DNA from: Candidatus Omnitrophota bacterium
Lineage (GTDB): Bacteria > Omnitrophota > Omnitrophia > Omnitrophales > Aquincolibacteriaceae
Length of the DNA: 42,921 nt
Direction: 5' to 3'
Assembly: GCA_043803685.1 (NCBI GenBank)
Contig: JAZDJU010000129.1
Coordinates: forward strand, 1-42,921
The stretch's first letter is position 1. Every line of letters begins with the position of its first letter. The notes beneath the pieces were generated by a model. The model was not told the origin of the DNA. It searched no databases and worked only from the letters and a program-made list of their open reading frames with translations. A program made the translations under genes and the position numbers. Positions 14,331 to 39,229 of this stretch are shown here, in pieces.

Positions 14331-14351
14331 TCTCAAATTTGAAATTTCAAA
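14331..14351. repeat. Heptamer tandem array, TYTSARA family (3 units)
   Basis: TCTCAAA TTTGAAA TTTCAAA directly abutting the response-regulator stop (14352-14354). Confidence 0.7.
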
Positions 14352-15675: not shown

Positions 15676-15738
15676 TATGGCTTATAGCTGATAGCCTATA
15701 GCTTTTAGCTAAAGGCTATGCGCTTCAGGCTATAAGCG
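15676..15738. repeat. Heptamer tandem array, TATAGCT family, inverted halves
   Basis: TATGGCT TATAGCT GATAGCC TATAGCT TTTAGCT AAAGGCT ATGCGCT TCAGGCT ATAAGCG. Confidence 0.8.
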
Positions 15739-15972: not shown

Positions 15973-17124
15973 CTATTCTTCCACTCTGACCGCCATGCCT
16001 TCGTCGATCAGTTTCTGGTTTATATAAATGTCGGCTCGGCCAGGAACATCAAGTTCCTGCCGAAGCCGTCCTTGCCCGTTGGGGGCAAGGGCAATAAAAA
16101 GATCGGCCAAGTAGCGGTCGTACTTGTCTGATTTCACTGTTCGAATAAGAACGGAAGAAGCTGAGACGCCAGAGGCAAGAGGCAGAGATTTTTCTTGCTT
16201 CTCTGCTTCTGTGATTCTTAATTCTTTTTCTAAGAATGCCTTCGATTCCATCCCGTCCGCGGTCATTATCTCAGGGGCGTCAATCCCTCGCAGGCGGAGT
16301 TTCTGAACTGTCCGGAACCCGAAACCGAGATCGATCAAGGCCTTGATCGTATCGCCATCCAGGACCTCGAGGACTTTGATCTCATAGGTATAAAGATCGT
16401 CTTCGGTCGCGTTGTCGAGTTTCCTGTATTCACCGTTCACGACCTGAAGAATATCTTTCTCCTGAAAGGAAAATCCCTTGGCGGGTGTGTAGTAATTGGA
16501 AAATCCAAGATCGAGCACCCGTTCCTTTTCCTCCGTCCCCCGGACAACACGGTACGTATGCGGAATACCAGGCTCGGCGGTAAGAACTTCCTCGAGGATT
16601 GGTTTTTCACCCCGGGTAACATTCCGGATCTCTTCGCGCAACCGGCCCCTCGTCCAATTTTCTTTTTCTGTCCTCTCGGCAAGGGTTTGCCGTTCTTCAG
16701 GATCATTGACCGAAAGCAGGTCGCGGTACTCCGACCAGCTCAATTTTGACGCACGCGGCAAAATCGGGTAGGCCCGGTAAAATCTAAGTGAGTAATAAAG
16801 CTCACGCCCGCTCATCCCAAGATCGCCGGAGAGCCGTCCCAGGACATGCTCGGCATAGTCTGCCCGTTCCTTGTGCTGAAGCACATGCGCATCGATCAGT
16901 CTTCCGATCTCCCACGCCTCGCGCACCCGCTCCCGTTCCACGGCCTTTTCCACCCGGACTCGGGCTTCGGCCCGTGCCCCACGGATCGCCGACACCAACT
17001 GATCATAAGCCTTAACCTCCGGCAGCGCCGTGACTTCCCCGCCGGGAGTGGCTTCTGCTGGAAGAATCGCGGAGGTCATAAGGATCAAAACGAGAAAAAT
17101 GCCGAGCATTTTCATCTTTTTCAT
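15973..17124 (-). CDS. DUF1016 (YhcG) N-terminal domain + thermonuclease (SNase-like) fusion with signal-peptide-like N-terminus
   Basis: Start ATG 17124 after AGGAGG. WEIGRLI...LSGDLG...LYYSLRFYRAYP...LSWSEYRDLL (DUF1016_N); VLDGDTI...LRLRGIDAPE...DKYDRYLAD...INQKLIDEGMA (SNase). Confidence 0.85.
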   Translation of the reverse strand: MKKMKMLGIFLVLILMTSAILPAEATPGGEVTALPEVKAYDQLVSAIRGARAEARVRVEKAVERERVREAWEIGRLIDAHVLQHKERADYAEHVLGRLSGDLGMSGRELYYSLRFYRAYPILPRASKLSWSEYRDLLSVNDPEERQTLAERTEKENWTRGRLREEIRNVTRGEKPILEEVLTAEPGIPHTYRVVRGTEEKERVLDLGFSNYYTPAKGFSFQEKDILQVVNGEYRKLDNATEDDLYTYEIKVLEVLDGDTIKALIDLGFGFRTVQKLRLRGIDAPEIMTADGMESKAFLEKELRITEAEKQEKSLPLASGVSASSVLIRTVKSDKYDRYLADLFIALAPNGQGRLRQELDVPGRADIYINQKLIDEGMAVRVEE

Positions 17125-17214
17125 CTTGGGAACCTTCCTCCTACCCCATTCCAGACCGGGTCTGGAATTGGGTTCCATTTTCAATTAAGTGATGTGTCCC
17201 CCGACCCTGTGTTT

Positions 17215-23856: not shown

Positions 23857-23934
23857 TAGACCATAGACCACAGACTATAGACCAAAGTCTTAAAATATTC
23901 CTGCTACGGTCTTCGGTCTCTAGTCTATTGTCTT
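23857..23934. repeat. Heptamer tandem array, TAGACCA family, inverted halves
   Basis: TAGACCA TAGACCA CAGACTA TAGACCA AAGTCTT, 15 nt, then CGGTCTT CGGTCTC TAGTCTA TTGTCTT. Confidence 0.85.
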
Positions 23935-28595: not shown

Positions 28596-30695
28596 TCACT
28601 CTTCGTCGATTCTGGATAGCACCGAAAGATCGGCGACCTCTGCGACATAAAGGCCCTTCACCTCCGCAATAAGCGCCATCCGATTCCCGCGTACTGTAGC
28701 ATCCTCCGCGTTCACGAGGACATGGTCGAAGAAATCGTTCAAGGGCGCTGAGAAAACATCCGCGAAGATCCGGGTCGCCTTCGCATACTCCCCCGCTTCG
28801 ACAGGCCCGGTGACATCTTGGGCCTTTGTACGCAATAATTCAAAAAGCTTCTTCTCGGCAGCTTCCACTAAAAGCTCTTCCTTCGGTTGGCCGGTCGTTC
28901 CTTGATAACCCTTCAGCATATTCGCCGTCCTTTGGATCACTTTGGCCGCCTTGATCAGAACCTTTTCATCCATTCGAGCCAACGCATCAAACCGTTTAAA
29001 CACATCCGCAATTTCCTCGAAAGAAGAACGCATCACCGCCTGAAGGATCTCAAAAGACCGCGTCCCGGCTTTGACGCCTAATTCGAACGACACGCGCTCT
29101 TGCAGGAATCGAATGAGTCTCGACTTCAGATCTTCTTTCTTGGTCAACTTATCACCGTAGCATTTCATGTCTGTCTCGATGAACTGCCCCAGAGAAAAAG
29201 AGATGCCGAACGCCCGGACAAGCTTCACGACGATGCCGCCCGCCCGACGTAGGGCAAAGGGATCCTGACTTCCCGTAGGTTCAATGCCCGAGCCCAAGGC
29301 CCCGACCAAAAGGTCCAGGCGATCCATGATCCCAAAGAGCGCTCCGAGAAGGCTCATGGACTTTGCAACCTTTGCGTGATCTTCCGTAAGATTTCTGGGG
29401 AGATATTGAGTCCCGATCGCCGCCGCAACCTCGTCCTTTTCCTTGGCTTCCCGGGCATATTCACGGCCTACGATGCCCTGGAGGTCCGGCATTTCATAAA
29501 CAAGATGGGTCACGAGATCGATCTTGGAAAGTGTGGCAACGCGCGCAAGATCCTGGCCGAGTTCCTTTTTCCCGATCGCCGCCGCGAACTCGGGGGCCAT
29601 TTTCTCAAGCCGCTCGGTCTTATCAAGAACGGAACCGAGTTTCCCAAGATATACGAGCTGAGCGAGCACGGATTTTTTATTTTCGAATGATTCGCGCGTA
29701 TCCATCTCGTAGAAATAACGGGCGTCCTTGAGCCGGGAGTCGAGAACGTTCTCGTAATCCGCACGGATCTTCGCGAGGCCATTGCGTTTGCCGTTCATGA
29801 CCGCGACGAATTGGTTTTTCATTCTTCCCTTGGCGTCCGAGCAGGCAAAAACCTTCTGGTTCTTCTTCATACAGCTCGCCAGCACTTCCGCGGGAAGCTC
29901 GAGATATTCCTGGGAAAAAGTCCCGGACAGAAAAAAAGGCTCCTCAACAAGCTGGGCATTCATATGCGCCAGTTCTTCATCACACTGCTTCTGCCCAAAA
30001 CGGTTCTTAAGAGCTCCCAAGACAAGATCCTCGCGCGTCTTGATCGGTAAAAAGACATGTTTCTTCTTGAGAAGCGCGACGTAGGCCTTCCAGTCGGCCT
30101 TCGGGATCACGAAACTCTGGGGCGAAAGAAAGCGGTGGCCAAAGCTCTTATTGCCGGACTTTACGTCGGCGAGCGTGAGCGGCACTTTTTGGGCGTCCAT
30201 TAGGACGACCAACCACCGGATGGGCCGCGGGAAACGGAACCCCGAAGCTTCCCAACGCATCAGTTTCGGGAATGAAAGCGAAGCAAGAAGCCCTTTGATC
30301 AGATCCGGGAGAAGGGCCGTCACGGCTACGCCTTTTTCTTTCTTCTTCAGAAAGATGAATTTCCCCTTGGGAGTTTCTCTGACTTCGATGTCTTTTTCAG
30401 TCGCTTGTTTACTCCGAAGGAATCCCTGCAGCACCGGCGTGGGTTTTCCCTGGGGATCATAACATTTCTCATGAGAGGGGCCCGAGATCTCAAGCTCCCG
30501 GTCCGGTTGCATCGAGGCAATGCCCTGGACAAAGAGCGCGATGCGACGAGGAGTCGCTTCGACCTTGACCTCTTCAAAAGTGACGCGTTCATCCGTCAAC
30601 TTTTGGCGCGTCTTCGCCGCCAGCTCGTCATAGATAACATCCAAAGTGCCGACGGGCAGCTCTTCAACGCCGATCTCGATCAATAAATTAGGCAT
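28596..30695 (-). CDS. glyS: Glycine--tRNA ligase beta subunit
   Basis: [21 protein letters not shown]...[42 protein letters not shown]...NR. Confidence 0.96.
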
Positions 30696-31587
30696 GTTTA
30701 CTTTTTCTTTGTTTAATCAATGGAAAATTCTGAGCCTTACGACTTTCAAGATACCCTTCCGCGCAGCGACGGGCCAGGGCCCGAACCCGGGCGATGAACC
30801 GGGGGCGTTCGTTCACGCTCACGGCACCGCGGGCATCCAGTAAATTGAAAATGTGCGATGTCTTGAGACAGCAATCATAGGCTGGCAAGACCATTCCGCC
30901 ATCTAGCAAACGCGCGGCTTGTTTTTCGTAGTCCTCAAAGTGGCGACGGTAGATCTCGGGATCCGATCCTTCGAAATTAAATTTTGAAAATTCCTTCTCG
31001 CCCTGAAGATGGACATCACCGTAGGTGACCTGGTCATTCCACTGGATGTCAAAAAGAGAATCCTTCTGCTGAAGGAACATGGCAATGCGTTCGAGACCGT
31101 AAGTGATCTCACAGGAGATCATCTCGAGATCGATCGAACCGCACTGCTGAAAATAAGTGAATTGCGTGATCTCAAGACTGTCGAGCCACACTTCCCATCC
31201 GAGGCCCCACGCGCCAAGCGTCGGGGATTCCCAGTCGTCCTCCACAAAACGAATATCATGCGCGAGAGGATCAATGCCGACCGCACGAAGGCTGTTCAGA
31301 TAAAGTTCCTGAGGATTCCCGGGAGACGGTTTCAAAATGACCTGGTATTGATAGTATTGCTGGGTCCGGTGCGGATTTTCGCCATAGCGACCATCCGTGG
31401 GTCTCCGGGAAGGCTCGACATAAGCGGCCTTCCAGGGCTCGGGACCCAAGGCACGGAGAAATGTGTGGGGAGAAAAAGTGCCGGCGCCAACCTCAAGGTC
31501 ATAGGGTTGCATCACAAGGCAACCCTGCTTCGCCCAGTAATCATTTAAATTTTGTATTAACTCTTGGAACGTCAAAGGTTTAGGCAT
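30688..31587 (-). CDS. glyQ: Glycine--tRNA ligase alpha subunit
   Basis: [60 protein letters not shown]. Confidence 0.98.
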
Positions 31588-31640: not shown

Positions 31641-31669
31641 ATTGTAACAAAAACCCTCTGACGAATCAA
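31641..31669 (-). promoter_or_regulatory. sigma70-type promoter for glyQ-glyS
   Basis: Minus strand TTGATT (31669-31664), 17 nt, TACAAT (31646-31641) with extended-10 TG. Confidence 0.55.
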
Positions 31670-31703
31670 GTTATGGGGGGGGGGAACCTTTAAGCCTTCT
31701 GTA

Positions 31704-31724
31704 TTTGAGATCTCAAATCTGAAA
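31704..31724. repeat. Heptamer array (TYTSARA) downstream of the four-helix-bundle gene
   Basis: TTTGAGA TCTCAAA TCTGAAA, 2 nt from the TAG stop. Confidence 0.75.
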
Positions 31725-31726
31725 TT

Positions 31727-32206
31727 CTAGCGCTGCGGCTGATAATATTGCCTGAGAGTTTCCTCGAACGCCTTCCGGCTTTTTCCTTGTTCAAAAATCG
31801 ACTTCGTCTGATCATTAAGATATCTTTGCCCGCGTATCGGGGTATTCTGAAGTGACGCCGACCAGCCCCGGATCTGGCGTGAGATCGCTTCGGCGACTGA
31901 TCTCAAATTTGAGATTTCAGATCTGAGATCATTCAAAACGTCGAGACGTTCCATCACCCACAGGATAGAACGCACCTCTCCGGCAGAACCCCGCGCGTAA
32001 TAAAGGAACGAAATCAGCTCCTGCGTCGTCCCGCGTTCGAATCCTTCTGCGATATTGTTCGATATGGAAAGCCCGGCACGCTGGATCTGGTTCGAAATAT
32101 CTCCGAGCCCGAGAAATCGTTTGTCCCGGGTCATTTTAAAAATGGACGCCGCCAGGCTGATACTGTCTTTCCAGACCGGGAGATCTTCAAAGCGTTCGAA
32201 TTTCAC
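31727..32206 (-). CDS. Four helix bundle protein (TIGR02436 / 23S rRNA IVP / Avd-like family)
   Basis: GTG 32206 after AAGGAG; FEDLPVWK...QIQRAGLSISNNIAEGFERGT...FLYYARGSAGEVRS. Confidence 0.93.
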   Translation of the reverse strand: MKFERFEDLPVWKDSISLAASIFKMTRDKRFLGLGDISNQIQRAGLSISNNIAEGFERGTTQELISFLYYARGSAGEVRSILWVMERLDVLNDLRSEISNLRSVAEAISRQIRGWSASLQNTPIRGQRYLNDQTKSIFEQGKSRKAFEETLRQYYQPQR

Positions 32207-32227
32207 CTGGATAGCTCCTTCCTCGAA

Positions 32228-32262
32228 TTTCAAATCTCAAATTTAAAATTTCAGATTTGAAA
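32228..32262. repeat. Heptamer array (TYTSARA) upstream of the four-helix-bundle gene
   Basis: TTTCAAA TCTCAAA TTTAAAA TTTCAGA TTTGAAA; contains the stop codon of the upstream gene. Confidence 0.85.
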
Positions 32263-32577
32263 TGACCCGAGGTGGCACTTCTTGAGTTTTTCAAGGACTG
32301 TCAATGCTTCCTGTCGCTCTTGGCAAACAGGATCGGCCTGCAAGGCCACCAACATCAGAAGCTCACGGAGTAATTCCTGGGCGGAGATCATTCGGTCTGT
32401 CTCCATGCCGGCCTGTTCAATGGCCGCGTAGAGAATGGATTTTACGGCATGGACATTGCCGTAATCACGGTCAGCTCCCTCTTCACGAAGGAAGCGACCA
32501 GTTCTGTCCACGACCTTCGCAAGACACCGGCGATAACCGTTTTCTATGTTTAGAGTCTTTTGCAGTTCCACTGTCAC
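32251..32577 (-). CDS. Hypothetical protein
   Basis: GTG 32577 after GGAGGGG; helical ~108 aa; no family recognised. Confidence 0.55.
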   Translation of the reverse strand: MTVELQKTLNIENGYRRCLAKVVDRTGRFLREEGADRDYGNVHAVKSILYAAIEQAGMETDRMISAQELLRELLMLVALQADPVCQERQEALTVLEKLKKCHLGSFQI

Positions 32578-32600
32578 TTGATTTCCCCTCCAGGTCCGGA

Positions 32601-38359: not shown

Positions 38360-39229
38360 TTAAGTGATAAGTGATACGTGACAAGTGGAAATTATAACAT
38401 TATCGATCAGCCTTGTCTTGCCGACATAACAGGCTGTCAATACAACCATATTTCTTTGGCATTGCTTGACAGGGACCAGCGTCACAGGATCCACGATTTC
38501 AAGATACTGGACTCGGTCCACATTTTTTTTTAATTCCCGAATAGCTCGGGCCTTCAAGGCAGCCACAGGCCCGCTTTTCCCCTTTAAAAGTCCTTTCCGA
38601 AGGGCAAAAAGTGTCCGCGAGATCGAAAGAGCTCGAGCTCTCTCCTTCGGACTGAGATACCGATTCCTGGAACTCATGGCAAGCCCGTCCTTGTCCCGAA
38701 CCGTAGGCCTCGCGCGTACCTGGACATTCATGTTCAGATCACGCACAAGCTGGCGAATGACTGCGGTTTGCTGAAAATCCTTAGCTCCGAGATAAAGCTG
38801 GCAAGGCCCGGTGATATTCAAAAGTTTCGCAACAATGGTTGCAACACCGCGAAAATGTCCTGGCCTGAATTTGCCGCAAAAAACATTCGCAATCCTAGGA
38901 GCGACATCCACAAACGTCGCATAACCTTTCGGATACATGGACGCTACAGAAGGACAAAAAAGATAATCGACGCCGACCTTCCGGAGCTTTTGGGTGTCCT
39001 TTGCTAAAACGCGCGGATATTTTGAATAATCCTCGTTTTTTCCGAATTGCGTGGGATTGACGAAAATACTTGCAACCGTAACATCGTTTTCATGGTTCGA
39101 CGCGAGAACAAGTGACAGATGCCCTTCGTGCAGAGCTCCCATCGTGGGAACAAAACCGATCCGCCTCCCCTTCCGGCGTGCCTGTTCCAAAACTGACTGG
39201 ATTTTTTCAGGATCTCGAATGATCTTCAT
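38360..39229 (-). CDS. panC: Pantoate--beta-alanine ligase
   Basis: VPTMGALHEGHLSL, SIFVNPTQF, RPGHFRGV, GAKDFQQ, GLAMSSRN, RLIDN. Confidence 0.97.
   Translation of the reverse strand: MKIIRDPEKIQSVLEQARRKGRRIGFVPTMGALHEGHLSLVLASNHENDVTVASIFVNPTQFGKNEDYSKYPRVLAKDTQKLRKVGVDYLFCPSVASMYPKGYATFVDVAPRIANVFCGKFRPGHFRGVATIVAKLLNITGPCQLYLGAKDFQQTAVIRQLVRDLNMNVQVRARPTVRDKDGLAMSSRNRYLSPKERARALSISRTLFALRKGLLKGKSGPVAALKARAIRELKKNVDRVQYLEIVDPVTLVPVKQCQRNMVVLTACYVGKTRLIDNVIISTCHVSLIT
38361..38388. repeat. Heptamer tandem array, TAAGTGA family, at the 3' end of panC
   Basis: TAAGTGA TAAGTGA TACGTGA CAAGTGG. Confidence 0.75.

Follow-up and report, generated by a model that had tools for sequence, protein, structure and literature searches.

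The described system closest to the element reported here is the S23p-type intervening sequence (IVS) found in the 23S rRNA genes of Coxiella and Leptospira. According to the available text of PMC4990558, such an IVS carries a small gene of the PF05635 family and fold with tandem heptamers just ahead of it, has complementary ends and is patchily distributed; in Coxiella the heptamers precede S23p and RNase III cleavage occurs. The cassette described below shares the family and fold, the heptamers ahead of the gene, ends that are complementary by consensus and the patchy distribution, but lies between protein genes (a comEA-linked ORF and glyQ) rather than in a 23S rRNA gene, and differs further in having a self-pairing unit, so that its arms are also direct repeats, an array within the gene itself and a 40-residue extension of the protein. 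The same fold occurs in Avd of the diversity-generating retroelements (DGRs; 4DWL, 8UB7), to which PF05635 has been likened (accessible part of PMC10053308) and which binds RNA in the DGR complex (bioRxiv 2023.10.23.563531, as far as available). In DGRs, too, part of a gene is replaced with a copy of a template, but their copies are adenine-mutagenised whereas tandem heptamers are involved here, and the cassette gene has no adjoining RT or TR/VR pair and matches TIGR02436 rather than the Avd model.

Heptamer SSRs such as GGGAATC of Xanthomonas resemble our arrays in having about four units and in being intergenic and often arranged as inverted pairs, and the excess of heptamers in bacteria is described as unexplained in the accessible portion of PMC4692102. 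In contrast to these SSRs, the heptamer studied here, TYTSARA, is tied to a gene subfamily, is self-complementary and is coded inside that gene. Looser parallels are provided by the Rickettsia palindromic elements (RPEs) and other MITEs (PMC10969869, available part), in which palindromic repeats also lie in frame in unrelated genes, and by the PARCELs (PMC2996958, available part), which are palindromic DNA repeats coding amphipathic peptides and spread across phyla. RPEs, however, are insertions of ~150 bp, whereas we deal with tandem arrays of 21-28 bp that leave the length unchanged at four sites, and we saw neither a transposase nor a target duplication; PARCELs are 25-residue repeats in membrane proteins, whereas the unit here is 7 nt long and its copies are mostly non-coding. 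We found no published name for heptamer-armed four-helix-bundle cassettes and, in a search mainly of openly accessible papers, no literature on this subfamily, an internal array or length-neutral replacement. What is new here is an internal array frozen at its silent sites and the length-neutral replacement of DNA in housekeeping genes.

The window, by which we mean the whole 42,921-nt stretch of DNA analyzed, comes from an Omnitrophota genome of 2.9 Mb (G000). A four-helix-bundle gene of 159 aa belonging to PF05635/TIGR02436 occupies positions 31727..32206 on the minus strand. Its upstream arm (32228..32262) consists of five TYTSARA units, its downstream arm (31704..31724), located 2 nt past the stop codon, of three exact units, and its internal array (31901..31928) of four exact units that code for residues 93-103 (DLRSEISNLRS on the minus strand). 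All three arrays are where a preliminary description of this DNA had placed them, with the correction that four of the five upstream units are exact, the remaining one (TTTAAAA) having one mismatch; that the TYTSARA consensus equals its own reverse complement, as that description also said, is correct. The gene is likely to start at the GTG at 32206, 8 nt behind a Shine-Dalgarno-like GGAAGGAG (32215..32222, minus strand), rather than at a TTG within the array, and this start agrees with the 159-160 aa of its homologs. The ORF upstream of the cassette (32251..32580, minus strand; start uncertain), which lies behind comEA, has no assigned function: it showed no match in Pfam or NCBIfam, and an atlas search gave no usable name. 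Its last codons and its stop (TGA, 32251-32253) are supplied by the upstream arm, as had been stated earlier. Among 41 genomes this host ORF is nearly limited to the genus, and some genomes have a second, diverged copy. On the other side lies glyQ (30688..31587, minus strand), preceded by a sigma70-like promoter match (TTGATT-17-TACAAT; 31641..31669, minus strand); the match is present in filled and empty alleles alike, so the cassette sits just upstream of the promoter. A run of about eleven Gs (31676-31686) between the downstream arm and the -35 box of glyQ is absent from the empty alleles displayed.

No transposase was found within the element, whose sole ORF is the PF05635 gene, and a comparison with Rfam yielded nothing above chance (one chance match, E 0.72). 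The earlier statement that the window holds no transposase, integrase or reverse transcriptase (RT) stands for the ORFs scanned (27 of the 52 ORFs of at least 150 aa, plus 6 more); the genome, however, does have a DGR RT on another contig. No target-site duplication was visible by eye between filled and empty alleles, which have diverged and in which the arrays blur the ends. By the features compared here, the element is neither a 23S IVS nor a DGR nor an IS, and it behaves like an IVS-type hitch-hiking cassette in mRNA operons.

The predicted protein scored 83.4 bits against PF05635 (cut-off, 33.8) and 80.9 against TIGR02436 (cut-off, 24). A structure model (pLDDT 86) predicts four long helices and a C-terminal fifth helix (residues 132-155) held by an extension specific to the subfamily; the internal array codes for the start of helix 4 (residues 89-119 in the model). 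Homopentamers are known for the PF05635/TIGR02436 family, and five chains are listed for 2GSC, the top Foldseek match (E 4e-5; TM 0.86 by target). The fold also resembles 2RLD and, more weakly, Avd. G000 has five PF05635 genes, and three of the other four have different heptamers at their flanks.

Of 19 same-genus relatives, 18 have the host ORF, and it adjoins glyQ in 16 genomes, G000 counted. Four of these 16 sites contain a full cassette (G000, G008, G009 and G014, the last with decayed arms), one a partly deleted cassette and one a solo array, and the remaining ten are empty (98-177 nt, no array). These empty sites, together with the finding that relatives of the gene lie behind unrelated genes, bear out the earlier view of a cassette inserted ahead of the glyQ promoter. 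In G015 everything between the upstream array and the internal array is missing, and G011 has the solo array only, which supplies the stop of the host ORF there too. In one contig of a close relative (depth 2.2), 31718 is joined directly to 32257, so that array meets array. At four further loci the neighbors differ. The states of the site are those expected from recombination between direct repeats, be it by loss or by entry at a solo array. A small antitoxin-toxin-like pair, labeled phd/relE-like by sequence reading, is found in the cassette's slot behind the comEA-linked ORF in G010, G006 and G002 (L037, L038, L039).

The cassette is not a one-off: it represents one variant in a class of elements that is widespread. 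We collected a subfamily set of at least 163 loci from the best 80 matches of each collecting scan; the set therefore leans to proteins resembling the query, a selection that acts on residues and not on silent bases. L124, L126 and L144 (unusable translation) and L069 (one residue shorter) were left out, giving 159 of the 163 loci. Among the listed loci with both flanks, 104 of 143 have at least one arm, compared to 1 of 127 and 4 of 119 control windows; an upstream TYTSARA arm is present at 92 of 154 listed loci (1 of 127 control windows). The neighbors are mutually unrelated: of 43 upstream ORFs scanned, 15 could be named at E 1e-40, and the names include cas7, xseA, atpA, rarA-like, hisB, rny, ubiD, fadE, lysA, selA and argC. 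A screen of viral contigs gave one relative among 22 candidates.

In the arms, the commonest upstream unit is TTTGAGA (80 of 311) and the commonest downstream unit is TCTCAAA (67 of 254), each the reverse complement of the other, and TYTSARA is the union of the two. Since they match in register at four of seven bases, arms that would usually be mirror images are here direct repeats as well, and the self-complementary consensus is best read as that of an ordinary mirror-arm cassette whose arms have grown interchangeable. Three units make 21 nt, that is, seven codons or one helical heptad, so an array can code for an amphipathic helix. Of the 17 positions of 31709-31725, 16 are complementary to 31914-31930 and the remaining one gives a G-U pair in RNA, and in the predicted fold of the window the internal array pairs with the downstream arm while the upstream arm pairs with itself (z -2.2) in a hairpin that reaches the start of the ribosome-binding site. 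By consensus the two arms could pair with each other as well; complementarity between upstream and downstream arms is not above null.

Of the 159 listed loci, 100 have four perfect internal units, 37 have one or two mismatches, 12 have three to five and 10 have more; thus 137 of these 159 genes, from nine named phyla and with a GC content of 39-65%, have four units with at most two mismatches. In 56 disjoint pairs (L135, which has an expansion, additionally excluded), differences affect 13 of 260 silent sites within the array and 1048 of 2968 outside it. Likewise, in 108 genes less than 80% identical, 862 of 909 informative codons fit the heptamer (expected, 464), and in a stricter set of 64 genes under 70% the figures are 491 of 523 (expected, 271). 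Ser96 is encoded by TCT in 88 of 95 cases and Ser99 by TCA in 87 of 92, compared to 259 of 1106 serines for those codons elsewhere in the gene. The top codon has a frequency of 0.93-0.98 in six array columns and reaches 0.8 in one column outside the array. The near-freezing of silent array sites indicates that the constraint is on nucleotides. Accordingly, the proposal that the gene may itself be a target of the repeat-generating process survives: synonymous changes in the internal heptamer are almost absent, and neither of the two outcomes that would have spoken against the earlier reading, a heptamer destroyed by such changes and a gene fixed in place without repeats, was borne out.

Variation in length of the DLRSEISNLRS segment was seen in rare outliers only. 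The spacing between helices 3 and 4 is identical in 158 of the 160 usable loci among those listed, and the segment has the same length in 119 of 120 near homologs. A few members have in-frame expansions at the array spot, in some cases by 21 or 28 residues, and this spot is also where many outlier proteins break. At least ten genes hold other residues in place of the motif, representing about five separate losses on a quick tree with many open forks, and the protein thus tolerates other residues at this segment. In the nearest sister group the arms consist of TTACARA and an internal array is missing, and none was present in the ordinary PF05635 members examined, which marks the array as a derived trait of the subfamily, ancient and common to the whole of this cross-phylum group.

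Positions that the consensus leaves free resemble the arm units and not the codon usage of the gene. Leu codons CTC, CTG and TTG at such positions number 63, 26 and 72 in the array, 164, 102 and 185 in the arms (p 0.22), and 297, 458 and 278 in the rest of the gene (p 5e-11), although two of three free-site tests differ from the arms too (Ile, p 0.04; Glu/Gln, p 0.002). Free positions change no faster than ordinary silent sites (68 of 206). In a GC-matched test in which kin are not independent, internal variants were nearer to the arms of their own locus than to those of other loci in three of four YSR tests (p 0.001-0.009), with p 0.065 in the fourth.

Solo arrays are found as well. G000 contains nine arrays of at least three TYTSARA units, three in the cassette and six elsewhere, and ~0.003 exact triplets would be expected by chance in a genome of this size, judging from the single-unit frequency. 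The six solo arrays occupy gene junctions and the 5S-23S rRNA interval, and in two genes an array is read in frame. A three-unit solo array in the window (14331..14351) is followed after 9 nt by the start codon of a gene for a Glu/Gln-type tRNA synthetase and is present at the corresponding site in G016 too; a four-unit array (C114:50703-50730; L240) lies between apparent 23S and 5S rRNA genes, which were labeled by sequence reading without a family scan. Where relatives have a solo TYTSARA array at a gene junction, G000 often has, by eye, a two-arm hairpin of another heptamer family; at such junctions one self-pairing array stands in for two arms. Among 45 arrays from relatives, 16 have no spanning match in G000 and 3 lie well inside a conserved gene (2 sites). 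Of 301 genomes of the phylum, 22 have arrays, 9 have a close gene and 5 have both, arrays occurring in 17 of 292 genomes without the subfamily gene and missing in 4 of the 9 that pass the protein cut-off, two of which belong to the sister group with TTACARA.

Period 7 dominates the short tandem repeats of G000, with 111 arrays compared to 0-18 for periods 5, 6 and 8-11. Three further period-7 arrays with other motifs are present in the window: those at 15676-15710 and 23857-23884 are halves of intergenic two-arm hairpins, and that at 38361-38387 overlaps the start of a pantoate ligase gene. Also in the window, a DUF1016-type (YhcG-like) gene (15973-17184) lies in a housekeeping region. Giant ORFs of 2000-7100 aa on contigs C10, C34, C47, C59, C67, C98, C114 and C123 of G000 contain many in-frame two-arm heptamer elements of several families. 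An Acidobacteriota genome (G050; L305-L322) has 248 exact triplet matches, its arrays sitting in a conserved REP-like hairpin, some of them in tandem with ~214-nt spacing.

The DGR of G000 has its own Avd and lies on contigs other than that of the cassette. On C24 (L323:197-2487) it looks complete: alongside the RT and an Avd that passes its cut-off (NF033474) there are a template repeat and two variable repeats, whose differences fall mostly at adenines, and a second target is on C130:26457-26607. The start codon of this Avd is immediately preceded by a TYTSARA doublet, and other heptamer families form hairpins close to the template repeat and within the RT gene. A link between the arrays and the DGR RT was considered and rejected, as the two do not co-occur among 41 genomes; the array-rich genomes G008, G016, G011, G015 and G009 gave no match to the DGR RT.

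Arrays also occupy protein-coding genes (the names proS, leuB, leuS, gcvP-like and cas4-like were given by reading the sequences, without a family scan). At all four housekeeping sites, coding DNA has been replaced by an array with zero net indel. In leuB, six of the nine rows displayed have the array and three have ordinary codons at equal length; the gcvP-like gene has an array in G008 and G010, and leuS one in G009, with ordinary codons in G000 and a net indel of 0 in both cases. In proS, 19 sequences align gap-free over 300 columns, 11 of them without a clear array and the others with TYTSARA, GACYACA, GTCCCGA or CTCCGAA-like units in one register, so that three or more heptamer families are represented in this slot. 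Two of them, GACYACA and GTCCCGA, are found genome-wide and serve as arms of other four-helix-bundle genes of the genus. On a tree of the flanks the proS states are scattered (seven changes), and even the 100%-supported sisters G010 and G003 differ. Array-bearing proS alleles mostly have a common short upstream haplotype, which suggests that block exchange between relatives may have moved some of them. The replaced sequences half-resembled the repeat beforehand (6-10 mismatches in 21 vs. 13.6 at random), a resemblance that suits homology-guided copying and a protein filter equally. G008 has two proS copies, one with and one without the array (C106 and C109), which may reflect contamination or a real duplicate. 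Insertions occur in tolerant loops elsewhere, and arrays in a neighboring cas4-like gene add length and vary in number. The cassette lies in type I-C CRISPR-cas operons at L065, L070, L074, L076, L082, L091, L105 and L152, where one loop of the downstream cas4-like gene holds an expanding in-frame array, longest in L082.

The explanation we favor, to which we would give roughly an even chance, is that arrays are repeatedly copied onto other arrays and onto look-alike sites, by an enzyme that is so far a postulate, and that protein selection pins the consensus. Recombination between direct repeats would give rise to the solo array and the half-deleted copy, conversion-like copying would write units onto neighboring units, other arrays and look-alike sites, and in essential genes the length-neutral outcomes alone would survive. 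By analogy with Avd, a relative with an RNA-binding fold, the protein probably recognises its own repeat and takes part. No invariant base of the heptamer is silent in all four internal units; unit-to-unit copying combined with protein selection would therefore, in principle, freeze the silent ones. Copying is also favored by the zero-indel replacements, by free positions that follow the arm units and by the likeness of internal array and arms at the level of the locus. Against it stand the rates at free positions, two of the free-site tests and the small number of zero-indel sites, four in all, which could have arisen by insertion and deletion filtered by selection, the arrays of the cas4-like gene being length-adding. 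The DGR RT, which does not follow the arrays, and the genomes that have arrays or a close gene alone count against it too. A more specific and, in our judgment, unlikely version is that four-helix-bundle proteins drive a template-guided rewriting in which each subfamily writes its own heptamer, in register, over look-alike or repetitive sites, often without change of length and including essential genes and its own gene.

The main rival, possible if rather doubtful, is that the internal array is instead a cis-acting site, bound or processed by the protein itself or by RNase III and kept by purifying selection, on which every active copy depends, e.g., for autoregulation or as a spare arm built into the gene. 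The distribution of arms fits such a site: at least 19 armless representatives are among the listed loci and 19 of 19 keep the internal array with 0-1 mismatch, while 15 of 15 listed representatives with a decayed array have an arm. The nominal association (Fisher p 0.005-0.07), however, fails a tree-aware test, in which six independent pairs give a median p of 0.5-1, and we do not count the trade-off between internal array and arms as a finding. Of 10 genomes with an armless gene, 4 have no exact three-unit array in the assembly other than the internal one, which agrees with a site and means that no outside template is available there, so that the copying account needs unit-to-unit copying or recent arrival of the gene in those cases. 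The predicted pairing of internal and downstream arrays and a weak excess of complementarity at a GC-neutral position (p 0.008, in one of 36 tests) point the same way, as does the cut that RNase III makes at the first heptamer of the Coxiella IVS, according to the text available in PMC4990558; G000 has an RNase III. On the other hand, neither a fixed hairpin register nor pairing covariation was found inside the array, the predicted partner varies (the array itself in 42 of 70 folds), and a site leaves the zero-indel replacements in leuB, gcvP, leuS and proS unexplained. Copying and selection for a site are not mutually exclusive. Less probable still is that polymerase slippage and ordinary recombination or transfer suffice, the gene being a passenger in repeat-prone slots and its protein inert toward the repeats. 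Arrays are indeed more numerous and longer-lived than the gene, slippage has been put forward to explain bacterial heptamers (PMC4692102, in its accessible part), host recombination alone accounts for solo and half-deleted alleles, and the proS haplotype allows for block exchange. Yet each gene subfamily has its own heptamer (TYTSARA here, TTACARA in the sister group, different ones in others), a local process cannot place GACYACA or GTCCCGA in a proS loop that lacked them, and slippage gives no reason for silent sites frozen across phyla. Finally, we consider it very improbable that the array merely reflects protein constraint, i.e., a conserved helix that happens to resemble the repeat, or recent common descent. 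Its residues do form a heptad in helix 4 of nearly fixed length; silent sites elsewhere are mixed even at invariant residues, however, while the array columns are frozen, and the motif has been lost repeatedly.

Taken as a whole, these observations bring together two old puzzles, the role of PF05635 proteins and the excess of 7-base repeats in bacteria. If the rewriting reading were true, the process would be related to DGR retrohoming but lack a linked RT, and it would be the source of bacterial heptamer repeats. Similarly, if the zero-indel swaps in proS, leuB, leuS and gcvP represent overwriting, they would constitute an unrecognised source of multi-residue protein change. The subfamily offers a clean handle on these questions, with a single defined target of 28 nt, whose silent sites are frozen in nine phyla, within a 160-residue gene, and conservation at the nucleotide level together with the swapping of arrays makes the function of the family directly testable.
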